IMG/VR virus record: IMGVR_UViG_3300034355_000834
Source: an uncultured virus (IMG/VR IMGVR_UViG_3300034355_000834)
Lineage: Duplodnaviria; Heunggongvirae; Uroviricota; Caudoviricetes
DNA length: 20,000 bases
Reading direction: 5' to 3' (one strand)
The notes beneath the pieces are model-generated. The model was not told the origin of the DNA, ran no database searches, and worked only from the letters and a program-made list of their open reading frames with translations. Shown piece after piece: positions 1,746-16,050 of the stretch; the first letter of the stretch is position 1; each line of letters opens with the position of its first letter. The position numbers and the translations under genes were made by a program.

Positions 1746-4150
1746 TAGGCTTCTCTGTTAATTAGTTGTGTTGAGCTATTTGTCACTAAGGTTTCCGTTC
1801 CATTTGGAACCTGAGTAATATCACCGTTTGATTGCGGTGGTGTTGCAGGCATTGTGTTATCAAGCGTCACCGGTACATTATTGTTATTTGTCGGAGTCAA
1901 CGATGAAGTAGGTATTCTATAATTTAATCCAGTTGCGTTAGTTTGTGTCGCATTGTTGCGTGTAGTGAGCGCCCTCCTCGCTGGCGTTCTATCAGTTACA
2001 CTCGCTCTTATATCTGATCCTATCATGCTATCTATTTGCAATTGCCTTTCTCTTGATAATCCATCATCAAGCACCCCTTTGAGTGTTTGGGTAAATTTTC
2101 CTTTTTCAAATTTACTTGTGATTTTTGATGTTCTATAAATCACTCTTTGTCTTGGATTATTTTGTCTGCCAACATTGTCAATAATGCCATTTATCTGAGT
2201 ATCGGGGTCCATTAAGCCGGTACTCAAATCATAATCAGACGGTGCGCTAAATGCGATCTCAAATAATACTTGACTACTATCAAGATTTATGCTACCGTCT
2301 GGGTAGAATCCACCATATACTAAATTTTCAGCAGCCGGTAGGCTCAACAATGATCCTTGCGCCATCCATGCCGGATCACCGACTATCTCTATTTCTGCAT
2401 CATTCAATGATTGATTATCATATAAAAAATCAGCGGCATTAGCTGCTATATCATTGGTTCTGCCAGCTGCACCATGCCCAGAATCACCCGATCTTGGTGA
2501 AAATATCAATTTATAATCTTCGTGTCCTTTCAACGATTCGGATAGTCGCTCACCACCATCACCGCCAAGAATGATAGTATGTTGAGTCTTCATGTGTTGT
2601 TCATACCGAAGAATCTGCGTATTTAACCCAGTAAACCAATAGTTGTATTCTTTAACTACGCCGGCAAACGGAGATGGTTTAAAATATGGACTCAATACAC
2701 TATAGACTTTAAATCTTGAGATAACGTACCGAATGGTGTAAGCATAATCATTTCGTTTAGGATCATATCCTTTTGGAATAGCTTGTACATTTATACTAAA
2801 CCAATCAAGATTTTTTTCAGCATTGATGTTATTAAACTGAGTCGTTTCTGATACCAATAGATTGGATTGGTTACTTATGTATGTGCTATTCCTAATAGTT
2901 TGGTCAATGATTTGCGTGATCTGTTGTCCAGCAGTGAAGTCGATCAATCTCACTGATTTATCCATAGATTGACGATTTGGATCACGTTGATCTGCCGCTG
3001 AACCTCTAAGTGGCATACCTGTTCCTTTTGTTCTACCATCTTTTACTGCTACAACCGCATTTGCTATTTCTGGATCAGCGAACTCAATGACATAAGTATT
3101 TGGTATACTGTATACTCCTTTGGCAACCAAATCTTGCTGATATTGATTTAATGCTGTCATCAACCCAAGCCTAACCGTATTTTTCGGTGTTGCTCCACTT
3201 TCATTTATTCTACCGGTAGTTTCAGTAGTCGACCCCGCTGCTTGTCCGGTTGTTACCGTGGTGCCTGTTGATAATACTTCCTTTACTGTATTACCACTTA
3301 CTTCCACATTGTACATCAAGCTATTTTGATTTTGGCCCTTGACTACCGTGATGGCGAGAGGTATAGCTTTTATGTGGTATTCAACCAATTTGTTTTCTTT
3401 TCCTACATTATATTCAATGTCGGTTATTTGGAATGGATAAAATTTTTCAACCAATGCGTAATTACTTTGCCCAGAAAGAGGTTTTCCTACTTGTACCAAA
3501 TTGCCATTTTCATCATAACCATAGAATTTAATTGCCATGACATAATTCTGAGAGCCAAGTGATTGATCTTTATCACCTCCAGCGCCCATCATGGCTTTAA
3601 TTGCTGCTCGCAGTCGTGGAATTAACGTAATTCCAGCCGGCTCTACTACGGTAAACGACATTTCAGAATCCATTGATGCTGTAGATTGTTCTCCTATTGG
3701 ATTTGTTTCAAGTATCAGATTGTCAAAGTAAAAATCAACATCAAAATAGGGACTGCGCTCATCATTGTTTACGCCACCACTTTGCATAACAATTGCTTGA
3801 GATGATAGAACCGATAAATCACCAGACATCACTTTAGCAATAGCATCTGATGTACACAGATACCACGTTAAAACATAATTGTAACTATAATAGTTGTCAA
3901 GTATATTGGGTTGCGCTGTGATTCTATCACTAAAAGGGGTACCGGCTTGAACAGCGACTTTTACTCTGTTGATGGTTGCATCATCGCTCGGGGCACCGGT
4001 ACCCGGAACAATGTTTGAAGAATTTGCATTTAAGTTGACCGGTTGTGGTCCATTTACACCAGTATTGACAAGCGTGATATTTGTCGGCGGTGTTGTTTGA
4101 CTCTGAGTAGTCGTTACAACAGGTACATTAGCTCCTACAACTACTGGCAT
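1745..4150 (-). CDS. Baseplate hub-like structural protein (gp27/gpD-like)
   Basis: 801-aa ORF upstream of the spike gene. NILDNYYSYNY near the N-terminus, AEIEIVGDP and SKFEKGKFTQTL near the C-terminus are typical of hub proteins. Termini are T/N/P-rich. Confidence 0.6.
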   Translation of the reverse strand: MPVVVGANVPVVTTTQSQTTPPTNITLVNTGVNGPQPVNLNANSSNIVPGTGAPSDDATINRVKVAVQAGTPFSDRITAQPNILDNYYSYNYVLTWYLCTSDAIAKVMSGDLSVLSSQAIVMQSGGVNNDERSPYFDVDFYFDNLILETNPIGEQSTASMDSEMSFTVVEPAGITLIPRLRAAIKAMMGAGGDKDQSLGSQNYVMAIKFYGYDENGNLVQVGKPLSGQSNYALVEKFYPFQITDIEYNVGKENKLVEYHIKAIPLAITVVKGQNQNSLMYNVEVSGNTVKEVLSTGTTVTTGQAAGSTTETTGRINESGATPKNTVRLGLMTALNQYQQDLVAKGVYSIPNTYVIEFADPEIANAVVAVKDGRTKGTGMPLRGSAADQRDPNRQSMDKSVRLIDFTAGQQITQIIDQTIRNSTYISNQSNLLVSETTQFNNINAEKNLDWFSINVQAIPKGYDPKRNDYAYTIRYVISRFKVYSVLSPYFKPSPFAGVVKEYNYWFTGLNTQILRYEQHMKTQHTIILGGDGGERLSESLKGHEDYKLIFSPRSGDSGHGAAGRTNDIAANAADFLYDNQSLNDAEIEIVGDPAWMAQGSLLSLPAAENLVYGGFYPDGSINLDSSQVLFEIAFSAPSDYDLSTGLMDPDTQINGIIDNVGRQNNPRQRVIYRTSKITSKFEKGKFTQTLKGVLDDGLSRERQLQIDSMIGSDIRASVTDRTPARRALTTRNNATQTNATGLNYRIPTSSLTPTNNNNVPVTLDNTMPATPPQSNGDITQVPNGTETLVTNSSTQLINREA

Positions 4151-4151
4151 A

Positions 4152-4454
4152 TTAGTATCCTAATGCTGCTTTTAATGTCGTGACTTTTGGCAAATAAATT
4201 TGAACACCGTCCGTAAAATCATAAGGAGGTGCTGTCAATGTATTAGGATTTCTTTGGTAAAATACCCACCATAATCCAGAATTGGAATACAAATCGTTTG
4301 CCAATAAATCAGGTCTATATTGATATGTCGCGTTAATAACAAATAATCTATCGTCAGTCTCTTTTGGAATAGGACGATTTACCCAAGGACCAAGATAAAA
4401 TGATTCAAATGGCGTAAGGTAATAGGGGCTGGTTGCTGGATATACAACAGTCAT
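4152..4454 (-). CDS. Baseplate wedge protein, LysM-like (T4 gp53 / tail X-like)
   Basis: YQYRPDLLANDLYSNSGLWWVF...N...G.QIYLP motif. Likely ATG at 4454, overlapping the upstream TAA (TAATG). Confidence 0.75.
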   Translation of the reverse strand: MTVVYPATSPYYLTPFESFYLGPWVNRPIPKETDDRLFVINATYQYRPDLLANDLYSNSGLWWVFYQRNPNTLTAPPYDFTDGVQIYLPKVTTLKAALGY

Positions 4455-5323
4455 TACCACATACCTCCCTTTAATAAAGCGCCCGTAGCGAAGCCTTTTA
4501 AGCTAAACGATTGACTCACTTGTCTTCTTGTTTGCATCGGTAAAACAGAAATATTGATAGTCATTTTAGTTGGAACATAAGTTGGAATACTTGCACCTAA
4601 ATTGGGCGATTGTGTAGCGAACGCATTAGGGGGAATAGCACCCGAGGTTAGTCCGGCAGTCTGCAATCTGGTTGCCGCCAATGATAAATTAGTCAATGTA
4701 GAGTTCTGTTTTGGTCTCTGATTGGAAAAATCAATACCGGTATTTTGAACTTTTGAACGTATGTAATCTACGTCTGGTGGCAATTGGTATGCAAAATTGG
4801 ACACCACAGCAGTATGCTCAATAAATTGATTAGGCCCGAATCCGGTCAAATAAACCAATGGTGGTGGGCTACCTCTTTCTGCATCTTGACCATAAAACAT
4901 CTTGGTTACTGATCTAAAAAAGTGAATTACCGCCAACAAGTAATTAGCTTCAAATGTATCTTGTGCTGTAAAAACACCCGAGATATCAACTTGGTCAACC
5001 GAACTACCTTGATAAAATTGCCCCAAATAATTTGAGTGAGTCAATTGATACGGCGCGTAGTTAGCTTTATACGATGTAGATACTTGTGGAGTATATGGAA
5101 AAATAACACCATCGGTGACTTTAAGTGGCTCTAATATGCCAGCAGGACTTGCGTTATATAAATAATCACTTTGAGGCGCAAGACTTATTCTAAAACGCCA
5201 GTCACCATTATTGTATAAACTTGTTTGATTAGTGATAGATTGCTGTAACTGAGCATTTAATACTGAGCCTTGTGTGGCAGCATTAAGTTCATTTACAGGG
5301 TCTAAAGTATATGGTTCTGGCAT
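4454..5323 (-). CDS. Tail-tube initiator / baseplate protein (gp48/gp54-like tube fold)
   Basis: GVIFPYTPQV...Y...THSNY, GSPPPLVYLTGFG and YVPTKMTINISVLP segments; position next to the LysM-like and hub genes. Confidence 0.6.
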   Translation of the reverse strand: MPEPYTLDPVNELNAATQGSVLNAQLQQSITNQTSLYNNGDWRFRISLAPQSDYLYNASPAGILEPLKVTDGVIFPYTPQVSTSYKANYAPYQLTHSNYLGQFYQGSSVDQVDISGVFTAQDTFEANYLLAVIHFFRSVTKMFYGQDAERGSPPPLVYLTGFGPNQFIEHTAVVSNFAYQLPPDVDYIRSKVQNTGIDFSNQRPKQNSTLTNLSLAATRLQTAGLTSGAIPPNAFATQSPNLGASIPTYVPTKMTINISVLPMQTRRQVSQSFSLKGFATGALLKGGMW

Positions 5324-5344
5324 AGTTTTTCCACGGTATTGTAT

Positions 5345-5352
5345 TATTTATG
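5345..5352 (-). promoter_or_regulatory. T4-type late promoter-like motif CATAAATA
   Basis: One mismatch to T4 late TATAAATA, ~22 nt upstream of the structural operon start. The same octamer precedes the other structural unit at 19982-19989. Confidence 0.6.
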
Positions 5353-5375
5353 CTTGAAAAATAGTGAAATTTTTC

Positions 5376-5404
5376 TTGCATAGGATGATATTATCTGATA
5401 TATT
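5376..5404 (+). promoter_or_regulatory. Sigma70-like promoter for the late-sigma gene
   Basis: TTGCAT-17 nt-TATATT with TG just upstream of the -10. Confidence 0.45.
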
Positions 5405-5433
5405 ATACTCATGTGTGTAACAGAGGAGGAATA

Positions 5434-6306
5434 GTGACACCGAGCAAAGTAAATTATCTAAACAATCGCGATCTTCTAAAAGAGATTCATAACAGTAAAA
5501 TCACTTACTGTAGTTTTCAGAACAAGGACACCGATCATCAATATGACATTATTTTACCCAGCGTTGAAAAAATAAATCGCTTAACTATTTCAGAGGCAAA
5601 GAGGCTCAAGGCTGATAGATTGAAGAAGGAAGGAATCGCTGAGATTGATCCAAAAAAGATTTCTCACACAGATTTAGTATTCCGAGTCCCATGTTGGGAT
5701 CATATTCCATTAGCTGTTCCAAAAGAAGCAAAAACTAAAACCAAGAAGATCAATATCACTGATGTATTTGATTTCTCGGACATATCACCAGAAGTAGATG
5801 ATGTCATCAATGATGACAATCCTATCAGCACAAAATACGTCGTACTGAATTTTCCGCCGTTTTATCACTATCGCCTTGATGAGAATAAGATACCGTATAT
5901 TGTCGGGAAAAGTCATTGGTCGGGTGATTTGGAAAATGGAGAATTTTGCCAAACGCACGGGCAAATAACCAATAAATTGGGTATGATGTTCATGAAATTA
6001 TGTGAACGATATTCCAGCAAAGGAAATTGGCGCTCATATTCTTATGTAGATGAAATGAGAAATCAGGCATTGTTACAATTGTCAATCAGTGGATTAAAAT
6101 TTGATGAATCCAAGGGTAGCAATCCATTTGCATACTTCACTTGCTGTGTAACCAATGCATTCAGACGCATTCTGAACAATGAAAAAGTTGCTCAAAATTT
6201 ACGTGATGATCTACTTGAAGCAAATGGACTCAACCCGAGTTGGTCAAGGCAGCAACAAGGCGTGTTTGAGGCTCAATTAAAAGCGCATAATTCAGAAGAA
6301 CATTAA
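5434..6306 (+). CDS. Late-transcription sigma factor (T4 gp55-like)
   Basis: VNYLNNRDLLKEI, NWRSYSYVDEM and KFDESKGSNPFAYFT motifs; lies upstream of gp47/gp46 as in T4-like phages. GAGGAGGA SD at 5423-5430 favours the GTG at 5434. Confidence 0.85.
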   Translation: MTPSKVNYLNNRDLLKEIHNSKITYCSFQNKDTDHQYDIILPSVEKINRLTISEAKRLKADRLKKEGIAEIDPKKISHTDLVFRVPCWDHIPLAVPKEAKTKTKKINITDVFDFSDISPEVDDVINDDNPISTKYVVLNFPPFYHYRLDENKIPYIVGKSHWSGDLENGEFCQTHGQITNKLGMMFMKLCERYSSKGNWRSYSYVDEMRNQALLQLSISGLKFDESKGSNPFAYFTCCVTNAFRRILNNEKVAQNLRDDLLEANGLNPSWSRQQQGVFEAQLKAHNSEEH

Positions 6307-6311
6307 AAAGC

Positions 6312-6340
6312 TTGCAATCCTATGATAGATGATGTAGACT
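6312..6340 (+). promoter_or_regulatory. Candidate sigma70-like promoter
   Basis: TTGCAA-17 nt-TAGACT in the intergenic gap. Confidence 0.35.
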
Positions 6341-6370
6341 GATGTTTGCATTATTATCGTAGGATTTTTT

Positions 6371-7387
6371 ATGTCTAATTTATTTAAAAAAGCGGCAGTT
6401 TTCACGGACCTCCATTTAGGACTCAAGTCCGATAGTGTTATTCACAACAATGATTGCATGGAATTTATTGATTGGTTTATCGCCACTGCTAAAGAGCAGA
6501 ATTGCGAGACTGGTATGTTCCTTGGTGATTGGCACAACAATAGAGCCTCACTCAATATCAGAACATTGCAATATTCACTGATTGCTTTGGAAAAGTTAGC
6601 AAAGGCGTTTGATCGTTTCTACTTTATCGTAGGGAATCATGATTCTTTTCTAAAAAACAGTCGTGAGGTAAATTCGCTTGAATGGGCGAAACACTTGGAT
6701 AACATTGTTCTATGCGATAATTGGTTATCAGAAGGCGATGTTACGATTGTTCCATGGATAGTAGAAGATGAGCATAAGCGTATTCAAAAAATAAAATCAA
6801 AATACGTTTTTGGCCACTTTGAATTACCTCACTTTAAGATGAACTCTTTAGTTACGATGCCCGATCATGGTTCAATTCGCAATGAAGATTTTGACAAGAT
6901 AGAAAAAGTCTTTTCTGGTCATTTTCATTTACGCCAGTGTAAAAACAACATTCATTACATTGGAAACGCTTTTCCCCACAATTTTTCGGACACTGGCGAT
7001 AGCGAACGCGGTTGTATGATTCTTGAATGGGGCAACGAACCAGAGTATTATTCATGGCCAAATCAGCCATTGTATTCTGCAACCAAATTAAGTACACTGA
7101 TTGACACAGCGCCCACGATATTGAAGGCGAATATGCATCTCAAGGTTGATTTGGACATTGATATCAGTTACGAAGAAGCCAATTTTATCAAGGATACATT
7201 TATCAGAGACTATTCATTAAGAGAAATGACGCTCATACCTATTAAAAATAATCAAGTCGACGTTGACCTATCACCCGGCGAGATCGTGTTTGAATCTATT
7301 GACCAAATCGTAACTTCCCAATTGACCAACATCAATAGCGAATTTTATGATCCAAAACTACTCCTTTCAATTTATCAGAACCTATGA
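6371..7387 (+). CDS. Recombination nuclease, Mre11/SbcD-like (T4 gp47-like)
   Basis: Metallophosphoesterase motifs DLHLG, LGDWH, GNHD, FGHF and SGHFH. Confidence 0.92.
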   Translation: MSNLFKKAAVFTDLHLGLKSDSVIHNNDCMEFIDWFIATAKEQNCETGMFLGDWHNNRASLNIRTLQYSLIALEKLAKAFDRFYFIVGNHDSFLKNSREVNSLEWAKHLDNIVLCDNWLSEGDVTIVPWIVEDEHKRIQKIKSKYVFGHFELPHFKMNSLVTMPDHGSIRNEDFDKIEKVFSGHFHLRQCKNNIHYIGNAFPHNFSDTGDSERGCMILEWGNEPEYYSWPNQPLYSATKLSTLIDTAPTILKANMHLKVDLDIDISYEEANFIKDTFIRDYSLREMTLIPIKNNQVDVDLSPGEIVFESIDQIVTSQLTNINSEFYDPKLLLSIYQNL

Positions 7388-7746
7388 TCATTGAATGGTT
7401 CAGAAAGACATTGAATATCGCAGAGAGAGCCGATCTATATGAAATGTCAAATATTCCTTCAAAACGGACTGGTTTACCTGTCACGGTTTTTTGTTCGCCA
7501 AAAGGCGCAGCTAAACACGAGTGTAGAGTAAAGGTGTCTAATATAGCCGGAGGAGTTAATGAACATGACGTATTTTCTATTGATTTAAGTGATCTTATTG
7601 TGCGAGGACACTGCAAGTTATCATCAGATGATCTAGAAGCGGTGAAGTGGTGGATTCACCGAAATCGTTTTGTAATTTTAGATTTCTGGAAAGAACGCAT
7701 AGATACATTGGATTTCTTGCAATCAATCAAGCCCATATCAGAGTAA
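7384..7746 (+). CDS. Small hypothetical protein (possibly DUF4160-like)
   Basis: ATGA overlap with gp47. EMSNI...TGLPV.V...H..RVKV...WI..N...ILDFW pattern recalled from small phage proteins. Confidence 0.55.
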   Translation: MIIEWFRKTLNIAERADLYEMSNIPSKRTGLPVTVFCSPKGAAKHECRVKVSNIAGGVNEHDVFSIDLSDLIVRGHCKLSSDDLEAVKWWIHRNRFVILDFWKERIDTLDFLQSIKPISE

Positions 7747-7755
7747 CAGATTAAA

Positions 7756-9516
7756 ATGACAATTAAACTCAACAATATTACACTCAAAAATTTTCTATCA
7801 ATCGGAGCGTCGTCTCAAGGAATTCATCTTGGGACAAACGAACTGACGTTGATCTTAGGCGAAAACATTGATCTTGGTGGTGATGGTAGCAGAAATGGAA
7901 CTGGAAAAACTTCCATTCTTCAAGCTATTTCATATGCGCTATATGGTCAATCTATTAGCTCAATTAAAAAAGATAATCTTATCAATCTAACCAACAATAA
8001 AAATATGTTGGTGAGCATTGACTTTACAATCAATGATAAGGAATACAGAATTGAACGAGGAAGAAGGCCAAACATTCTTAAATTTTATGTAAACGACCAA
8101 GAGCAAAAATTCAATGATGAAGCTCAGGGTGATAGCCGAGAAACGCAATACGCGATTGAAAAATTGATAGGCATCAGTCATGATATGTTCAAGCATATTG
8201 TAGCTATCAACACCTATACTGAATCGTTTTTAGCACTCAAGACGAACGATCAGCGAGTAATTATTGAACAACTATTAGGAATCACTCAGTTAAGTGAACG
8301 AGCAGAAAAAATAAAAGAGCAATCAAAAGCAACCAGAGATTCTATATCTCAAGAAGAATTCAGAATAAAAGCAATCAATGAAGCCAACAATAAAATTCAA
8401 GAGCAAATTGATAGCTTAATCAAACGACAAAAATTATGGCTCAATAAACAAGCTCAAGATATTGAATCATTCAAAAACGCATTAGACGATCTATCACACG
8501 TTGAAATTGAATCTGAAATTCAAGGTCATAAAAATTTGGAAGAATGGTTGATTAAAAGCACAGCGATCACCGAGGCCGAAAAGTGGATTAAATCAATTGA
8601 TTCCGAACAAAAGCGATTAGAGAAAACTCAGAGTAAGCTAAAAACAGAAATTGAGGCACTTGAATCACATAAATGTTACGCTTGTGGTCAAGAGCTACAC
8701 GATGAAAAACAAAATGAAATCATCCAATCAAAGAGCGAAATGCTACAAGAAGCGGTGACGCAGTGGTTATCAAACGATACTCAATGGCATGAACATAAAA
8801 AAATTATTGATGAGTTGGGTGATATTGGCAAGCGACCTACCGTTTTTTACAATACGCTTGAGCAAGCATTAAATCATCGCCATGCGGTAGAATCACTTGA
8901 ACAACAGATGAATAGTAGAATCAACGACCATGATCCTTATGGCGAACAGATTGATGATATGAAACATCGTGCATTACAAGAAATTAGCTACGATAAGCTC
9001 AATGAACTGACACGAATAAACGAACACCAAGATTTTCTGCTAAAATTGCTAACCAGCAAAGATAGCTTTATTCGTAAAAAAATCATTGATCAGAATCTAG
9101 CTTATCTAAATTCAAGGTTGACGCATTATTTGGATAGAATGGGCTTACCTCATGTTGTAAAATTTCAAAATGATTTATCAGTATCTATTGAAGAATACGG
9201 CAGAGAAATGTGCTTTGGCAATCTTAGCAGGGGTGAGATGACCCGATTAACACTATCATTGAGCTTCGCATTTAGAGACGTGTTTGAAAGTCTTTTTTCA
9301 TCCATCAATCTTTTATTGATAGATGAAATGATTGATGCCGGATTGGATTCTACTGGTGTTGAGAATGCGTTATCAGTATTGAAGAAGATTTCACGCGATA
9401 GACAAAAGAGCATATTCTTGGTATCACACCGCGAAGAACTATTGAGCAGAGTAGATAGAAAATTGTTGGTAGTTAAAGAAAATGGATTCACCTCATTTAG
9501 CGAGGAGGCATCATGA
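7756..9516 (+). CDS. Recombination ATPase, Rad50/SbcC-like (T4 gp46-like)
   Basis: Walker A NGTGKT, coiled coil with zinc-hook CYAC, signature LSRGE, Walker B LLLIDE, D-loop and H-loop (VSH). Confidence 0.93.
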   Translation: MTIKLNNITLKNFLSIGASSQGIHLGTNELTLILGENIDLGGDGSRNGTGKTSILQAISYALYGQSISSIKKDNLINLTNNKNMLVSIDFTINDKEYRIERGRRPNILKFYVNDQEQKFNDEAQGDSRETQYAIEKLIGISHDMFKHIVAINTYTESFLALKTNDQRVIIEQLLGITQLSERAEKIKEQSKATRDSISQEEFRIKAINEANNKIQEQIDSLIKRQKLWLNKQAQDIESFKNALDDLSHVEIESEIQGHKNLEEWLIKSTAITEAEKWIKSIDSEQKRLEKTQSKLKTEIEALESHKCYACGQELHDEKQNEIIQSKSEMLQEAVTQWLSNDTQWHEHKKIIDELGDIGKRPTVFYNTLEQALNHRHAVESLEQQMNSRINDHDPYGEQIDDMKHRALQEISYDKLNELTRINEHQDFLLKLLTSKDSFIRKKIIDQNLAYLNSRLTHYLDRMGLPHVVKFQNDLSVSIEEYGREMCFGNLSRGEMTRLTLSLSFAFRDVFESLFSSINLLLIDEMIDAGLDSTGVENALSVLKKISRDRQKSIFLVSHREELLSRVDRKLLVVKENGFTSFSEEAS

Positions 9517-10020: not shown

Positions 10021-11430
10021 ATGATTACACTACGCGATTATCAGACCGAGACTCTAAACAACATTATTGCTGCTATCTATGCTGGCAACGGTTCAGTTAG
10101 CGGCAGAGTGGTTATCCCAACTGGTGGCGGCAAGACATTTCTTGAAGCTGCTGCATTGCATCACCAAATGAGTGAAAATTCAGAATCACGCATTCATTTG
10201 GTGCTTGCTCCTCGCATTCTACTCGTTAACCAACTGATTGATGAATACCGCAAATTCGCAAGCAACGGATTTAACGTAGCAGCATTTCACTCCGGTGAAT
10301 ATGAGCCGGATGCACAAAGTCTTTCTGTTCTCGGCAATGTTCCAACGACCACTTGCAAGGCAGATATTCTTGAAGCCTTGGATAATGCAAAATTCAGAAA
10401 TCGCGATCTCGTGGTATTCAGCACATATCATTCTTGCGGAAGATTGGCGGGAATTAATTTCGACACGATGATTGCAGACGAGAGTCAATTCTGCGTTGCC
10501 GAAGGTTTTCACGTAGACGTGATGAATGTTTCCGCTCGCGTAAAGTTATATTTTACTGCCACCGAAAAGCACACAGCATCATGCCTCGGACGAGGTCTCA
10601 ATAATGAAATCGCTTATGGCAAAAAACTTTCTAATGTAACTGCCGACATGTTGGTTGCAAAGGGAGTAATTCTACCGCCGAGAATGCACATCGCTCATTG
10701 CGAAGTAAACGAGGAAGTGGAAGATCCAACTTTGGATAAGGTTATTGAGATTGCAACAAAACAACATGAACTATCAGAGGACTTGGGATTCAGCAAAATA
10801 ATCTTCGCAATGAATGGCACAAATGCTGTTCGCACAATTGAGGAGAATGCCAAAATTTTGAAGAGTAAATTCCCAGATCACGATATCTTTTGCATCACTT
10901 CAAAATTTGGTTCCAGCATAAACGGCGTTGAGACAAATCGTTCTGCATTTATGGAAATTATGCGAGATTGCCAATCTGCTTTAATTTTTCATTACGATAT
11001 TCTCAGTGAGGGTATTGATATTGATGGCATCACCGGGGTTGCGTTGCTGAGAGGCATGGACCAAACGAAGTTGCAACAGACTATTGGCAGAGCAGTTCGC
11101 CTTTATAAGAAAGCACCTGAGCTAAAAACTTGCGCATGGGTATCGGTTCCTGTGGTAAACGGCAACGAAGATGATTTAGCCAATGTATATCGGGTAGTTC
11201 ATGCCATTCGTGAAGGTGGATATGACCTGAGCTATGATGAAGTAGTTATCACTAGCCCAGTTCATATTCCAGAATCTGATCCGATTGAAAACGCTTATGG
11301 CGATGATCCAAAGAAATCTGCCACCACTCATATTGAAAATATCTTTCATGAGATTGAATTGGGAGCGTATTGGGATAAAGTAGCAAAAAGCGAAACTTTT
11401 GATGATTTAATCTCTAGTCTTGACTTTTAA
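10021..11430 (+). CDS. SF2 helicase/ATPase of restriction-enzyme (ResIII / Type ISP-like) type, no fused nuclease
   Basis: Q-motif LRDYQ, Walker A PTGGGKT, LAPRILL, STYHS, Walker B IADESQ, TAT, EGIDI, QTIGRAVR. Confidence 0.85.
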   Translation: MITLRDYQTETLNNIIAAIYAGNGSVSGRVVIPTGGGKTFLEAAALHHQMSENSESRIHLVLAPRILLVNQLIDEYRKFASNGFNVAAFHSGEYEPDAQSLSVLGNVPTTTCKADILEALDNAKFRNRDLVVFSTYHSCGRLAGINFDTMIADESQFCVAEGFHVDVMNVSARVKLYFTATEKHTASCLGRGLNNEIAYGKKLSNVTADMLVAKGVILPPRMHIAHCEVNEEVEDPTLDKVIEIATKQHELSEDLGFSKIIFAMNGTNAVRTIEENAKILKSKFPDHDIFCITSKFGSSINGVETNRSAFMEIMRDCQSALIFHYDILSEGIDIDGITGVALLRGMDQTKLQQTIGRAVRLYKKAPELKTCAWVSVPVVNGNEDDLANVYRVVHAIREGGYDLSYDEVVITSPVHIPESDPIENAYGDDPKKSATTHIENIFHEIELGAYWDKVAKSETFDDLISSLDF

Positions 11431-11447
11431 ATTTAATTCTGTATAAT
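11420..11447 (+). promoter_or_regulatory. Phage early sigma70-type promoter (copy 2)
   Basis: TTGACT-16 nt-TATAAT with the TTCTGTATAAT core; GAGGA SD before ATG 11473. Confidence 0.75.
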
Positions 11448-11472: not shown

Positions 11473-12516
11473 ATGAATAACTTTGCAAATCACGACACAC
11501 TATCAAAACTGTACAAGGTGATTGATGTTGCCCCACCACACCTACGTTATGATGATAGCCACAATGTCCGCACTCCCAAGAAGCTAGTACACGAAATCTT
11601 GGACCAAGTGGATGTTCACAATAAAACCATTTTAGTCATATTCAATGTTGAATGGATGTTCTCGTTGGTGTATCATTATGGCGTGAACCCAAAGAACATA
11701 ACGTTCTACTCGGATCATTGGATAAAGTCCGAGTACGCCAAGCGTATTGGCATTGAAGTAATAAATAGCTTAATGATAGATAGAAAATTTGATATTGTAG
11801 TGGGTAATCCGCCTTTCTCAAAAGGTAAACAATTGCTTTATCCTCAATTTTTTAAGGATTCATTGGATTTAGCCGAACTTGTGGTAATGATTATGCCATA
11901 TAATATATTAGCCGGAGGAAAGGTAAAATCACATAACAAATTGCTAAAAACTCATTCAATTAGTATTTCAGAAAATATAACAAATCATTTTAAAAATGTT
12001 GGCGTAGTTGACATGAGATATATTATTGCATCCAAAGATCAAATCAATGATATTGTCGACAATTCTTTTCAGTATGAAGAAATACTGCCCGATAACACAA
12101 GGCTACCGACTCCCATAAGAGGAATGAGTGGTCTTTCTACACCAAAGAATGAAGACCCCGACGGAGTAACAGGAATTTACGCCATACACAGAGGAAATAA
12201 GGCAATATGTAAAAAATACAGAACTGAGGTTGCCGCGCAAGTAAGAAAACCGATGAATTCAACTAGCCCTTGGTTCGTTTTGATTAGCATGAATCCGTAT
12301 AAGGGACTTTTTAATACTGCTGTTATAAAAAATGACGGAATGATTTGGAGTGGAAAAGTATATGCATTTGAATCTTCATCCGAAGATGAAGCAAACAAGT
12401 TAGCAGAATGGTTAGTATCAGATGTTATTCAACAAGAAGTGAGAAAATTCCTGGAAGAGAAAAAAACTTATGCCATTTCCCAAGAAATGATTAAAAAATT
12501 ACCCAACTACAAGTAA
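11473..12516 (+). CDS. N6-adenine MTase-fold / target-recognition protein, full-length copy (cassette 1)
   Basis: Motif X-like VRTPKKLVHEIL and motif IV KFDIVVGNPPF, followed by a variable C-terminal domain. Has its own promoter and SD. No clear glycine-rich motif I. Confidence 0.75.
   Translation: MNNFANHDTLSKLYKVIDVAPPHLRYDDSHNVRTPKKLVHEILDQVDVHNKTILVIFNVEWMFSLVYHYGVNPKNITFYSDHWIKSEYAKRIGIEVINSLMIDRKFDIVVGNPPFSKGKQLLYPQFFKDSLDLAELVVMIMPYNILAGGKVKSHNKLLKTHSISISENITNHFKNVGVVDMRYIIASKDQINDIVDNSFQYEEILPDNTRLPTPIRGMSGLSTPKNEDPDGVTGIYAIHRGNKAICKKYRTEVAAQVRKPMNSTSPWFVLISMNPYKGLFNTAVIKNDGMIWSGKVYAFESSSEDEANKLAEWLVSDVIQQEVRKFLEEKKTYAISQEMIKKLPNYK
11764..11817 (+). repeat. 54-bp cassette-start repeat, copy 1 (internal to the full-length gene)
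   Basis: aatagcttaatgatagatagaaaatttgatattgtagtgggtaatccgcctttc; other copies at 12544, 13511 and 14294. Confidence 0.95.
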
Positions 12517-12525
12517 AAACTAAAC

Positions 12526-12539
12526 GGACATGGATGTCC
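12526..12539 (+). repeat. GGACA-TGGA-TGTCC hairpin before cassette 2
   Basis: 5-bp stem with 4-nt loop; identical copies at 13493-13506 and 14276-14289. Confidence 0.9.
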
Positions 12540-12540
12540 T

Positions 12541-13476
12541 TTGAATAGCTTAATGATAGATAGAAAATTTGATATTGTAGTGAGTAATCCGCCTTTCCAA
12601 AAAACGGTAAACGGTCAGAGATTTCATGCAGCCGCGAATCATTGGCCAGAATTCGTAGTTAAAGCTGAAGCACTGACAAACACTGACGGTGTATTCGCTC
12701 TAATCACACCGAATGGTTGGATGACGCCATCCGCCGATGTTGGGAAGGGGAAAGGAGGAATTCGCATTTACGATTATTTACGAAATTATAAAACAATTTC
12801 AATAAACATCGATGAATGCGGTAGGCACTTTAAAGACTATGCGTCATCATTTACTTACTTCATCATCCAAAAAACAGAAGGAACATCCGATTTAACAAAA
12901 ATAGTAACGAAGGATTCTGAATTTAATGCGAACATAACGGATGTAGAATATTTCCCATCAATGGTTAATCCAATATCACTATCGTTGAATAAAAAAATTC
13001 TGCGAGGCAAACCTATTGGATTTACAAACAACAATACAGCAGAATCATTAAAGTTTGGCAAAGATATTACTGAAGTTCCATCAATTGATCATGGTGTAAA
13101 GTGCTATCACAGCTCTGCAAAGACGGGAACATATGTTTATTCATCTTATACCTCTTGCGCAGTGTCCAAGAAAAAAGTAATGGTATGCAGTTCAGGAACC
13201 TTTCTACCGATATATGATCAAGGAGTTTTGGGGTTTACCAATAAAATTTACGTATATTATTTAACAAATAACGAGAACCTGAACTCAATAAAAAGTTATC
13301 TTGAGAGTAAATTGATCAAAGCAATACTATCATTCAATAAAACATCTGGGTGGACAAGTTATGCCCTAAGAGTATTGCCCAAGGTTGATTTTACGAAAAA
13401 TTGGACCGACGAAGAGTTATACGCGCACTTCAACCTAACCCAAGAGGAGATTGATCTGATTGAGGCATCAGTTTAA
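12541..13476 (+). CDS. N-truncated MTase/TRD cassette 2 (different C-terminal type, Eco57I/TaqI-C-like)
   Basis: Starts TTG + NSLMIDRKFDIVVSNPPF, then WPEFV...GVFALITPNGW; ends DFTKNWTDEELYAHFNLTQEEIDLIE. Not alignable by eye to cassettes 1, 3 and 4 after the repeat. Confidence 0.75.
   Translation: MNSLMIDRKFDIVVSNPPFQKTVNGQRFHAAANHWPEFVVKAEALTNTDGVFALITPNGWMTPSADVGKGKGGIRIYDYLRNYKTISINIDECGRHFKDYASSFTYFIIQKTEGTSDLTKIVTKDSEFNANITDVEYFPSMVNPISLSLNKKILRGKPIGFTNNNTAESLKFGKDITEVPSIDHGVKCYHSSAKTGTYVYSSYTSCAVSKKKVMVCSSGTFLPIYDQGVLGFTNKIYVYYLTNNENLNSIKSYLESKLIKAILSFNKTSGWTSYALRVLPKVDFTKNWTDEELYAHFNLTQEEIDLIEASV
12544..12597 (+). repeat. 54-bp cassette-start repeat, copy 2
   Basis: One substitution versus copy 1 (GGT to AGT). 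Confidence 0.95.
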
Positions 13477-13492
13477 CAACTCTGGATTTAAT

Positions 13493-13506
13493 GGACATGG
13501 ATGTCC
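13493..13506 (+). repeat. GGACA-TGGA-TGTCC hairpin before cassette 3
   Basis: Identical 14-mer, preceded by a different upstream spacer. Confidence 0.9.
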
Positions 13507-13507
13507 T

Positions 13508-14266
13508 TTGAATAGCTTAATGATGGATAGAAAATTTGATATTGTAGTGGGTAATCCGCCTTTCTCAAAAGGTAAACAATTGCTTTATCCTCAATTTTTT
13601 AAGGATTCATTGGATTTAGCCGAACTTGTGGTAATGATTATGCCTTACAGCGAAAATTCAAACGGAGTGAAGGTAAAATCACATAACAAATTGCTAAAAA
13701 CTCATTCAATTAGTATTTCAGAAAATATAACAAATCATTTTAAAAATGTTGGCGTATCCGATATGAGATATATCTTTGCATCCAAAGATCAAATCAATGA
13801 TATCGTCGACAATTCTTTTCAATATGAAGAAATACTACCCGATAACGCAAGGCTACCGACTCCCATAAGAGGAATGATTGGACTCAACATGCGAATAAAC
13901 GAAGATCCAGCGGGTGTAACCGGGATTTACACTATACACAGAGGCAACAAGGTAATAATAAAAAAATATAAACCAGAGGTCGCTAATAAAGTAAAAAAGT
14001 CCATGAATTCAACTAGCCCTTGGTTCGTTTTGATTCAAGAAAATCCGTCTAGGGGACGCTTTAATACCACTGTTATAAAAAATGACGGAATGATTTGGGG
14101 TTCTAAAATATTCGCGTTGGAATCCAACACCGAAGATGAAGCAAACAAGTTAGCAGAATGGTTAGTATCAGATGTTATTCAACAAGAAGTGAGAAAATTC
14201 CTGGAAGAGAAAAAAACTTATGCCATTTCCCAAGAAATGATTAAAAAATTACCCAACTACAAGTAA
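13508..14266 (+). CDS. N-truncated MTase/TRD cassette 3 (paralog of cassette 1 C-terminus)
   Basis: TTG at 13508 is equivalent to the starts of cassettes 2 and 4. NPPF motif; near-identical to cassette 1 apart from discrete patches. Confidence 0.75.
   Translation: MNSLMMDRKFDIVVGNPPFSKGKQLLYPQFFKDSLDLAELVVMIMPYSENSNGVKVKSHNKLLKTHSISISENITNHFKNVGVSDMRYIFASKDQINDIVDNSFQYEEILPDNARLPTPIRGMIGLNMRINEDPAGVTGIYTIHRGNKVIIKKYKPEVANKVKKSMNSTSPWFVLIQENPSRGRFNTTVIKNDGMIWGSKIFALESNTEDEANKLAEWLVSDVIQQEVRKFLEEKKTYAISQEMIKKLPNYK
13511..13564 (+). repeat. 54-bp cassette-start repeat, copy 3
   Basis: One substitution versus copy 1 (ATA to ATG). Confidence 0.95.
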
Positions 14267-14275
14267 AAACTAAAC

Positions 14276-14289
14276 GGACATGGATGTCC
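14276..14289 (+). repeat. GGACA-TGGA-TGTCC hairpin before cassette 4
   Basis: Identical 14-mer. Confidence 0.9.
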
Positions 14290-14290
14290 T

Positions 14291-15046
14291 TTGAATAGCT
14301 TAATGATAGATAGAAAATTTGATATTGTAGTGGGTAATCCGCCTTTCTCAAAAGGTAAACAATTGCTTTATCCTCAATTTTTTAAGGATTCATTGGATTT
14401 AGCCGAACTTGTGGTAATGATTATGCCATATAATATATTAGCCGGAGGAAAGGTAAAATCACATAACAAATTGCTAAAAACTCATTCAATTAGTATTTCA
14501 GAAAATATAACAAATCATTTTAAAAATGTTGGCGTACCGGATATGAGATATATTATTGCATCTAAAGATCAAATCAATGATATCGTCGAGGATTCTTTTC
14601 AATATGAAGAAATACTACCCGATAACGCAAGGCTACCGACTCCCATAAGAGGAATGATCAGCCTCACTGCCTCTATAAATCAAGACCCCAATGGCGTAAC
14701 GGGAATTTACGCCATACACAGAGGCAACAAGATAATTTATAAAAAATACAGAACTGAAGTTACAAAGCAAGTAAAAAAGTCGATGAATTCAACTAGCCCT
14801 TGGTTCGTTTTACTCAACACCGAGCCGTCCAAAGGACTTTTTAATACTGCTGTTATAAAAAATGACGGAATTTTATGGTGCCACAAAGTTCTCGCGCTTG
14901 AATCTTCATCCGAGGATGAAGCAAATAAGTTGGCAGAATGGTTAGTATCAGATGTTATTCAACAAGAAGTGAGGAAATTGCTTAAAGTCAAGGGGTCATA
15001 TACCATTTCCCAAGAAATGATTAAAAAATTACCCAACTACAAGTAA
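14291..15046 (+). CDS. N-truncated MTase/TRD cassette 4 (paralog of cassette 1 C-terminus)
   Basis: TTG start, NPPF motif; the first 243 bp after the TTG are identical to cassette 1. Confidence 0.75.
   Translation: MNSLMIDRKFDIVVGNPPFSKGKQLLYPQFFKDSLDLAELVVMIMPYNILAGGKVKSHNKLLKTHSISISENITNHFKNVGVPDMRYIIASKDQINDIVEDSFQYEEILPDNARLPTPIRGMISLTASINQDPNGVTGIYAIHRGNKIIYKKYRTEVTKQVKKSMNSTSPWFVLLNTEPSKGLFNTAVIKNDGILWCHKVLALESSSEDEANKLAEWLVSDVIQQEVRKLLKVKGSYTISQEMIKKLPNYK
14294..14347 (+). repeat. 54-bp cassette-start repeat, copy 4
   Basis: Identical to copy 1. Confidence 0.95.
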
Positions 15047-15580
15047 AAACTAAACAACAAAATTTCAACAAACAACACCAGAGGACTCATGTACCATAGA
15101 TTCAAGTATATTTGTTACGATAAGGATAAACTCCTTAAAGGATGTAAAAAATTAAGCACATTTATGAATCGGTTGGATAAACAAAGCAAGGAAGAACACG
15201 GAATGGGATGGACTTCAGACAAGTACAAAGGAGAGGGCTTTGAAGCGTTCATTGAGGTCCTCATCAAAAATAGTCCAATTGATAAGCGAATCAACATCAA
15301 AAATTATCGCCCACATTCTGTAAAAAAGAATGGACCAGATATGGGCATTGATGGATATGGCATCTCTCATGACGGGAATCCTCACACTGTTCAGATTAAA
15401 TTCCGAAGTTTAGTAATGGAGGATTTAACCACAAAAGACGCCATATCAAATTTCGTCGCTACTACTGCCGCGAATCCAAAATATAAAGATGCCGATATGA
15501 CTATTTTTACCACAGCGGCAGGTCTAAATTTTAAATTAGCGGACAAAATGTATCATAATCGCGTGAGAACAATTGGATAC

Positions 15581-16050
15581 TTGGCATCCCCGCCTGTCAT
15601 ACCTTCACTCGGTGTCCTACCTCGTTTGGTAAGACCTCGTTTTATATCCGATAGACTTCTTGAGTTCTACGTTTCATCGGTATCTCAATTACTCACGGAT
15701 ATTAAATCTGCAATAATTGAGGTTATTCATACCTCCACGTGCATTAATTCGGACGTACCCCGCCCTATTGCCGTTAGGCCTTGCGATTTTAATAATATCG
15801 CTACAATTACGAGCATATACTACCCGGGCATCCCATGAGTGCTTATTTCATCACCCAATTGCTACGCCACTGTTTTTATTTATCAGTTCTTCAACTGATG
15901 TGATAATTTTATCATTACCTGACCAAGAAGTCAAGTGTTTTTTATCTGAGAAACGGCGGGGATAACCACCTCTATGCCCCAAAACGTCCTGCTACGCAAT
16001 GACTCGCCGAATATGCGTTTGGGGGTCGTCGTACATCCTTGTACTCCTTC
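15581..16050 (-). mobile_element. 470-bp non-autonomous insertion, probably an IS200/IS605/IS607 (TnpB-associated) derivative
   Basis: Precise gene interruption without a target-site duplication. The minus strand ends GGCGGGGATGCCAA and carries AGGGCGGGGTACGTCCGAATTAATGCACGTGGAG...CCGATGAAACGTAGAA, resembling a tnpB 3' end/omegaRNA scaffold. 9-bp inverted repeat at 15586-15594 / 15955-15963. Confidence 0.6.
15906..15934 (-). promoter_or_regulatory. Sigma70 promoter inside the insertion, firing leftward
   Basis: Minus strand TTGACT-17 nt-TAAAAT with extended -10 TG. Confidence 0.65.

Follow-up and report, generated by a model that had tools for sequence, protein, structure and literature searches.

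A phage DNA methyltransferase gene followed by headless cassettes: a locus that probably swaps its DNA-recognition part by recombination

Layout of the methyltransferase array

The window analyzed here, a 20,000-nucleotide (nt) stretch of the uncultured virus record IMGVR_UViG_3300034355_000834 (Caudoviricetes), is part of the ~126-kb genome of a T4-like myovirus from lake water. It carries an array of methyltransferase modules (Table 1) in which a complete gene, ORF1, is followed in tandem, on the same strand, by three open reading frames (ORFs) that begin 17 to 25 codons ahead of motif IV. ORF1 is a predicted TaqI-like (gamma-class) N6-adenine DNA methyltransferase. Its first 97 residues, here called the head, are absent from the other three ORFs, and there is one head only, in the window and in its nearest independent record (G001; 30 kb). 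The rest of ORF1 forms cassette c1, and the headless ORFs are cassettes c2, c3, and c4. All four carry a 54-nt junction repeat that encodes NSLMIDRKFDIVVGNPPF, that is, strand 4 of the fold together with motif IV. Four 54-mers this nearly identical are far beyond chance. The original prediction, made from the sequence of the window, had described one full-length gene and three headless cassettes on a 54-bp repeat, with every frame intact and an N terminus of ~97 amino acids (aa) unique to cassette 1, all of which is borne out by the ORFs and the repeat positions.

Only the first cassette is preceded by a promoter-like site on the + strand, as had been predicted. This site is the best between positions 11200 and 15400, as judged by consensus match only, and no + strand site above 9/12 lies inside the array; promoter-like sites overall number 18, versus 17.9 expected from shuffles. 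The Shine-Dalgarno sequence of ORF1, which had been called strong, is ordinary (−5.9 kcal/mol), with half of the window genes (8/16) at −5.8 kcal/mol or stronger. A 21-nt leader containing the inverted repeat GGACAT..ATGTCC is common to c2, c3, and c4 and absent from ORF1. The junction repeats themselves are direct, and the sole inverted pairs are 21-nt, 81% matches within coding sequence. Pfam scans of 24 window ORFs turned up no domain of a site-specific recombinase or integrase, in agreement with the original prediction, and no Rfam family and no tRNA were found.

Several translational routes through the junctions were considered. The stop of ORF1 and the first TTG of c2 lie in one frame, 27 nt apart (12514 to 12543), and the same holds for c3 and c4 (14264 to 14293). 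Stop-codon read-through from ORF1 into c2 and from c3 into c4, and frameshifting or ribosome hopping at the junction, were dropped, as judged by eye, because no slippery heptamer was seen and a fusion of a complete with a headless protein would be structurally senseless. The leader holds a five-codon mini-ORF (ATGGATGTCCTTTGA) whose TGA overlaps the TTG, which may be chance or a re-initiation device. A role of the leader hairpin as a terminator or structured signal is unsupported, since its fold as RNA is weak (−6.3 kcal/mol, z −0.5). None of the runs holding the locus is on record as RNA.

Table 1. Positions of the array, its repeats, and associated features (window coordinates unless a locus is named)
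Feature	Position	Strand	Details
Promoter-like site TTGACT-16-TATAAT	11420..11447	+	11/12 consensus match, just upstream of ORF1
ORF1, complete methyltransferase (head + cassette c1)	11473..12516	+	347 aa; predicted
Head, ORF1 residues 1-97	11473..11763	+	Rossmann strands 1-3 (AlphaFold2 model)
Junction repeat copy 1, in ORF1	11764..11817	+	54 nt; encodes strand 4 + motif IV
21-nt leader of c2	12523..12543	+	inverted repeat at 12526-12539
Cassette c2, headless ORF	12541..13476	+	311 aa; divergent catalytic half, different recognition domain
Junction repeat copy 2, c2	12544..12597	+	53/54 vs ORF1 copy
Cassette c3, headless ORF	13460..14266	+	268 aa; 251 aa from NSL; homologous part from 13511
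21-nt leader of c3	13490..13510	+	sequence repeat
Junction repeat copy 3, c3	13511..13564	+	53/54 vs ORF1 copy
21-nt leader of c4	14273..14293	+	sequence repeat
Cassette c4, headless ORF	14291..15046	+	251 aa; first 75 codons 100% nucleotide-identical to c1
Junction repeat copy 4, c4	14294..14347	+	54/54 vs ORF1 copy
Mre11/SbcD-like + Rad50/SbcC-like recombination nuclease genes (T4 gp47/gp46 type)	6371..9516	+	2-5 kb upstream of array
Gene directly downstream of array	15089..15838	+	weak Mrr-type nuclease match PF13156, E 0.012, below cut-off; phrog_7683 (no function given)
Head-only genes at related loci	L007:2095-2544, L020:5893-6321, L017:6058-6570, L030:1991-2485, + 13 more loci		

Predicted enzyme and traces of recombination

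Assignment to the methyltransferases draws on the motif, the predicted fold, and, with mixed scores, the profile. Against a gathering score of 25.3 bits for PF07669 (Eco57I), c2 lies above the cut-off (38.4), ORF1 is at it (25.3), and c4 (24.4) and c3 (21.5) fall below it. Motif IV, NPPF, occupies residues 112 to 115 of ORF1, recurs in c2, c3, and c4, and comes directly after strand 4. An AlphaFold2 model of ORF1 built from 33 sequences (predicted local distance difference test [pLDDT] score, 88.2) has a two-domain fold in which the motifs run from the head (X and I to III) through IV to VIII to a recognition domain, the order found in solved members. M.TaqI (E value, 2.8e-10), CamA, and M.BseCI are its top Foldseek matches (E values to 1e-8, probability 1.0, template modeling [TM] scores of 0.40 to 0.46), and TaqI was also found, but only weakly, by a sequence profile. 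These are monomeric two-domain enzymes that share the order of head, NPPY, and C-terminal recognition domain; ORF1 differs from them in its identity of only 10 to 15%, a shorter C-terminal domain, and its motif I. In the model, strands 1 to 4 correspond to residues 53 to 56, 76 to 79, 95 to 97, and 106 to 111 (FDIVVG, followed by NPPF). Because the repeat starts between strands 3 and 4, c2, c3, and c4 lack the head, the putative cofactor-binding half.

The glycine-rich loop of motif I (FxGxG type), which enzymes of the class have, is absent from the head, which has ILVIFNVEWMF in its place. Close homologs have FNVEF or FNIEW at this point, and other family members and the head-only genes described below have DPxCGDGQF. 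We therefore refer to the head as a putative cofactor-binding half with an atypical motif I, FNVEW. The original prediction held c2 to be unrelated to the other cassettes apart from the repeat. This is overstated. In its catalytic half, c2 is homologous to the other cassettes, though divergent (31% identity over 119 aa), and its C-terminal recognition domain is a different one that is found in other family members, too. Folded alone, c2 gave a low-confidence model (pLDDT, 68; 12 sequences) that was not used. Most family members, complete single-copy genes included, share the methionine found at residue M101 of ORF1, just ahead of KFD in strand 4 (MKFD; alignments A2, A3, and A5), and this Met is the start codon of most headless ORFs.

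Comparison of c1, c3, and c4 reveals that they are mosaics. Identity of c1 to c4 is 100% over the first 75 codons and that of c1 to c3 is 100% over the last 45 codons. Divergent patches lie between the identical blocks, and in the center the synonymous divergence (dS) is 0.66 to 1.05, i.e., old. At the 118 informative sites, 50 runs were counted, and none of 10,000 permutations had as few. The ratio of nonsynonymous to synonymous divergence (dN/dS) is 0.26 to 0.30 for every pair, that of c3 and c4 included, and c3 and c4 are 95 to 97% identical to head-attached orthologs in relatives, compared with 73/77 for head residues 21 to 97. Thus, conservation of c3 and c4 matches that of the head, and no decay is seen. 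The body of c2 is only 19% identical to the others at the protein level, yet a 63-nt window at the junction is 87 to 95% identical at the DNA level, and similar discordance between body and junction recurs in the related loci L020, L033/L035, and L022. This pattern amounts to concerted evolution of the junction DNA, which protein-level selection does not explain.

Relatives carry different copies on the head, and it is for this reason that we infer exchange of the module. In one protein (P0001), a head identical to that of ORF1 (97/97) is joined to a body identical to c4 (250/250). Two others combine a head matching at 87/97 with a c3-type body (239/251 in P0002 and 238/251 in P0021), and a fourth joins a head matching at 85/97 to a c4-type body (242/250; P0018). 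DNA identity between L009 and L006, which belong to a distant lineage, is 96.7% across the head and the first ~190 aa, after which the two continue into different C-terminal domains; L009 has an additional headless ORF directly downstream of the head-bearing gene. Taken together, these sequence comparisons appear to give good support both to recombination at the joint and to an exchange, over evolutionary time, of the modules behind the head.

Independent data on the array came as contigs (Logan) rather than reads, with a break at every repeat. They stem from four metagenome runs on lake water, each of a different study (2020 to 2024), that contain 87 to 93% of the sampled words. Among the pieces listed, contigs specific to one cassette and free of mismatches were found for c1 and c2 in all four runs, for c3 in three, and for c4 in two. 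A 970-nt contig (12553 to 13522) joins the c2 tail to the next leader and repeat in all four runs, and another (12403 to 12525) spans a tail and a leader in run X3. Word depth of the cassette-specific contigs, which is a rough guide, is of the same order as that of the flanks and not a fraction of it. Since the joint between the c2 tail and the leader is bridged in every run and the depths resemble those of the flanks, a stitch of strain alleles is unlikely.

No match to the array was found in a DNA search of 50,697 phage records, and a protein search of the same records gave only a weak match of 29% in two records of Synechococcus phages. In IMG/VR, exact-pattern and protein scans matched only a truncated neighbor record, and the metagenome and genome scans returned only relatives at 36% identity or less or, in bacteria, matches to motif IV alone.

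Related loci and neighboring genes

Family-alignment scans, from which 41 loci were fetched, place the array within a wider family. Complete tandem arrays are common in it, with five paralogs in L022 and two to four in L025, L021, L043, and L028. The five complete paralogs of L022 (positions 3311 to 9025) have heads and junction DNA that are 83 to 98% identical over 63 nt and bodies with 23 to 46% protein identity, which makes this locus the all-complete counterpart of the window array. Among these loci, 8 other phage contigs contain headless ORFs, defined by a stop that lies at most 33 codons ahead of motif IV. Those of L009, L020 (two), L030, L033 (three), and L035 follow a gene that bears a head, the two of L013 follow one another, and those of L026, L034, and L036 are stand-alone genes. 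Lineages differ in the truncation point, which is either the Met of MKFD or a position 12, 23, or 33 aa ahead of that Met, and these differences imply independent events.

Some of these ORFs have gene-like starts. In L033 the headless ORF overlaps the upstream stop as ATGA and in L009 as TAATG, in L020 its ATG lies 2 nt past the upstream stop, and in L013 GAGGA is found 7 nt before the ATG. The stand-alone genes (L026:742-1611 and 4950-5882, L034:2186-3109, and L036:5001-5855) start at MKFDVVVGNPPY, with AT-rich leaders ahead of them; no head-bearing family member was found in these three records, which are fragments (15%, 21%, and 71% complete). A search of 1.84 billion representatives gave 388 matches. 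The 150 listed include ~100 complete proteins, 8 matches that form the C-terminal part of a protein of 365 to 1,183 aa, and ~13 headless proteins of 238 to 268 aa, all of the latter starting with Met and three having short N-terminal leaders of their own. The module also forms the C-terminal ~350 aa of proteins of 1,100 to 1,400 aa (L020:449-4036, L010:5520-8996, L032:1905-6059, and L041:2199-5924), and the same placement was seen in P0044, P0058, P0059, P0064, P0065, P0075, and P0080.

The head, too, exists as a separate gene. A conserved gene of ~150 aa with motifs X and I to III, which corresponds to the N-terminal part of PF02384 (positions ~21 to 118) and to phrog_21201 and has no NPPY, adjoins arrays in 17 loci, where it usually overlaps the last methyltransferase gene. 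This family is huge, with 7,996 of 8,000 scored candidates at an E value of 1e-5 or below, and its members adjoin loci with only complete genes just as often as loci with headless ones. The window and the 30-kb G001 record, which cover 38 kb of the ~126-kb genome, yielded no head-only ORF, and no close free-standing copy of the ORF1 head was found among proteins of 53 to 170 aa in a set of 5.8 billion proteins. The head-only product may serve headless halves as a common subunit or may have another role.

Whether a head can pack against a cassette of divergent sequence was addressed by complex prediction for ORF1 residues 1 to 100 and c2. The pair scored 0.81, compared with 0.59 for the best control, and passed a mark that 116 of 157 solved complexes and 2 of 215 mismatched pairs also reach. 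Runs agreed in at least 92% of contacts, with a partner pLDDT of at least 80. In the predicted interface, strand 1 of the head (52 to 56) pairs with strand 4 of c2 (6 to 11), which rebuilds the sheet. Thus, the divergent c2 is predicted to be compatible with the head, which is a statement on compatibility and not on binding. Because single-chain enzymes of this fold have been solved, the pass may reflect likeness to, or memorization of, those structures, and because fusion and assembly in trans both require such a fit, it does not decide between them.

Other genes in the window encode baseplate proteins, a gp55-type late sigma factor, dCMP deaminase, and helicase. The Mre11/Rad50-type genes upstream of the array are candidate drivers of recombination. 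For the ORF directly downstream, a role of its Mrr-like product as a starter of recombination is pure speculation. The PHROG match of this gene stops at residue 163, and an insertion-like stretch of ~440 nt (15580 to 16020) with a G+C content above that of its surroundings lies within it; a C-terminal coding piece may resume near 16020, as judged by eye, but is absent from the one frame translated. At 15580 to 15582, 15641, and 15869 to 15921, several different sequences join and the depth rises in all four runs, as in a mobile or repeated element. The stretch folds somewhat better than shuffles (z −2.9) and contains no Rfam family and no tRNA.

Interpretation of the array

The array is real and unusual, and its mechanism is half resolved. 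Given the different copies carried behind the head in relatives, the locus probably swaps its DNA-recognition part by recombination. In the reading that we favor, although we would put it at about an even chance, the locus is a recombination-driven module array of a phage DNA adenine methyltransferase in which the downstream copies are a silent reservoir. One promoter and one head would serve four alternative modules, each comprising a catalytic half and a recognition domain, of which only the first is fused to the head. The near-identical DNA for strand 4 and the NPPF motif would be the joint for homologous recombination, and the extra identical blocks of c1, c3, and c4 would be further exchange sites, so that crossover or gene conversion at such blocks could place another module in frame behind the head. 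This scheme presumes that exchange occurs at a useful frequency per infection, through T4-type recombination machinery of the phage itself, that the modules differ in target sequence, and that the downstream copies serve mainly as a reservoir. Sub-populations would then differ in their protective methylation against host restriction, and each genome would not be exposed to every methylation-dependent nuclease. The original prediction of exchange at the repeat behind the head agrees with the mosaics and with the combinations seen in P0001, P0002, P0021, and P0018; ongoing switching within a phage population would go further than these patterns.

A number of observations weigh against this reading. 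The repeats are direct, so simple crossovers would delete the intervening cassettes, and the process would run one way unless gene conversion or recombination between genomes restored them. Silent storage is not obviously needed, because other phages keep several complete paralogs, up to the five of L022. Headless ORFs of the family have start signals of their own, and some of them are stand-alone genes in records where no head-bearing one was found. In the window, the c3 frame is open from a TTG at 13460 that is preceded by the Shine-Dalgarno-like GAGGAG (−9.1 kcal/mol). No joint inside the array appears among the contig pieces listed, in which some bins have little or no cover; taken alone, this counts neither for nor against switching. 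The combination in P0001 could be an alternative assembly path, since c1 and c4 are identical over 243 nt behind the junction; for P0002, where a c3-specific patch lies only 135 nt from the junction, a mis-join of short reads is less probable than for P0001. Finally, P0018 and P0002 both list a longest contig of 12,716 bp, and if the two lie on one contig, that relative would have two complete genes and not a swapped head.

The same observations bear on the other explanations. If the headless ORFs are expressed, by re-initiation, by coupling, or from their own starts, and the resulting halves use a head in trans (that of ORF1 or a head-only protein), then several motifs could be methylated at once with one shared head. 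We consider this less likely than the reservoir, although it is a serious and live rival that would run counter to the original prediction. The headless members in other phage contigs, the gene-like starts in L033, L009, L013, and L020, the stand-alone genes, the Met-started headless proteins among the listed representatives, and the separate head-only genes all argue for expression, as does the Shine-Dalgarno-like site before the c3 TTG. The c2 and c4 starts are equivocal: at the ATG neither has a Shine-Dalgarno match (+0.3 kcal/mol), which speaks against translation, while the TTG of each is at −3.7 kcal/mol, and 5 of the 16 accepted window genes are at −3 kcal/mol or weaker. The predicted packing of head and c2 fits a trans arrangement as well, within the limits given above. 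However, the sole head seen is covalently fused to c1, and neither a head-only ORF in the window or G001 nor a close free copy in the protein set was found. The head-only genes, being equally common at loci with only complete genes, are not specific partners. Moreover, protein-level selection on expressed halves does not explain why the 54-nt junction of c2 has zero synonymous differences from the others.

It is also conceivable, but quite improbable, that the headless copies are functionless by-products of active T4-like recombination, either partial duplications or captured allele fragments, that are too recent to have decayed. The 100% identity of the cassette flanks implies recent events, the purifying signal (dN/dS of 0.2 to 0.3) could predate truncation and stem from complete genes in other lineages, and where complete tandem paralogs are as common as in L021, L022, L025, L028, and L043, accidental partial ones could arise. 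Against this, cassette-specific contigs were recovered in runs from four studies spanning 2020 to 2024 despite 243-nt perfect direct repeats prone to deletion, all three headless frames are intact, c3 and c4 are conserved like the head in comparison with relatives, and the same structural truncation boundary recurs independently at lineage-specific positions. That the array is an assembly artefact, with strain alleles of a single gene placed in tandem, we regard as very improbable indeed. G001 breaks at position 11890, inside the repeat region, the Logan contigs do likewise at each repeat, and the body behind the head cannot be told apart as c1 or c4 in contigs because the two share 243 identical nt. 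On the other hand, joints of tail, leader, and repeat are present in independent data, the leader has no counterpart in a single-gene locus, and cassette depths, as far as this rough guide goes, are not fractions that sum to the flank.

In architecture, the array is closest to silent-cassette gene conversion systems such as pilE/pilS and vlsE/vls. Like the array, these have one promoter-bearing expression site with a 5′ constant part and promoterless, 5′-truncated copies, and conserved blocks interleaved with variable patches that recombine by homology, a block pattern that the array shares. The vls cassettes also form a contiguous array edged by short direct repeats, as here. The differences are that the viral locus encodes a DNA-modifying enzyme and not a bacterial surface antigen, that its copies, whole modules with a catalytic half and a recognition domain, are arranged in direct tandem and on one strand, that no initiating element is known for it, and that exchange is deduced from sequence. 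A more specific and more tentative version of the silent-store idea, which we consider possible but somewhat doubtful, is that of a viral contingency locus, in which recombination by the phage itself would swap the module behind the head in a fraction of the progeny, much as at pilE/pilS.

Other systems resemble the array in part. The Mu G and P1 C tail-fiber segments join a constant N-terminal part to stored C-terminal specificities, as the array would, and so do phase-variable type I hsdS loci of the pneumococcal ivr/SpnD39III kind (compare PMC7383803); the result in each case is a changed specificity for a DNA target or a host. Those systems use inverted repeats and a dedicated site-specific recombinase, whereas the array has direct repeats and no recombinase domain in the ORFs scanned; in hsdS, a separate S subunit varies, whereas here the methyltransferase itself does. 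Domain movement in Helicobacter (compare PMC3467074) likewise shifts recognition domains, by recombination at flanking conserved sequence, between paralogous methyltransferase genes; there, the partners are complete genes at separate chromosomal loci, with no headless array behind one head.

The Bacillus phage cytosine methyltransferases of SPR, phi3T, and rho11s place several specificities in one phage locus against restriction, as the array may, but hold their recognition domains in one polypeptide, all active, whereas the modules of the array are separate ORFs closed by stops. M.AquI and M.EcoHK31I are two-polypeptide methyltransferases. These, like split M.SssI, are cytosine-5 enzymes that are divided elsewhere and have one pair per enzyme, while here one head would face several halves. 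The M.SssI fragments (PMC3404938) indicate that a two-polypeptide fold can reassemble, a property to which the head-c2 packing predicted here corresponds. At the level of abstracts, with subscription journals outside this scope, the literature showed no account of phage arrays of headless methyltransferases or of adenine methyltransferases that are naturally split.

The headless ORFs in eight other contigs and a head-only family of thousands suggest that such loci are widespread in aquatic phages and not a one-off. Methyltransferases are a main counter of phages to restriction-modification systems, and how phages match the diversity of host systems is, to our knowledge, poorly understood. If the downstream cassettes are expressed halves that share a head, the locus would be a natural combinatorial split DNA methyltransferase, likewise a novelty and one of use in the engineering of programmable methylation. 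If they are a silent store, no silent-cassette specificity switch would have been described before it in a virus or in a methyltransferase proper, and general recombination would drive it, with no dedicated recombinase. Should the locus act as a contingency locus, the wider family of complete, headless, and head-only genes in many aquatic phages would act as a kit of modules, recombined at the joint between strands 3 and 4 and possibly also assembled as protein, and each burst would be mixed in its methylation pattern, as a form of bet-hedging against both restriction systems and methylation-dependent nucleases.

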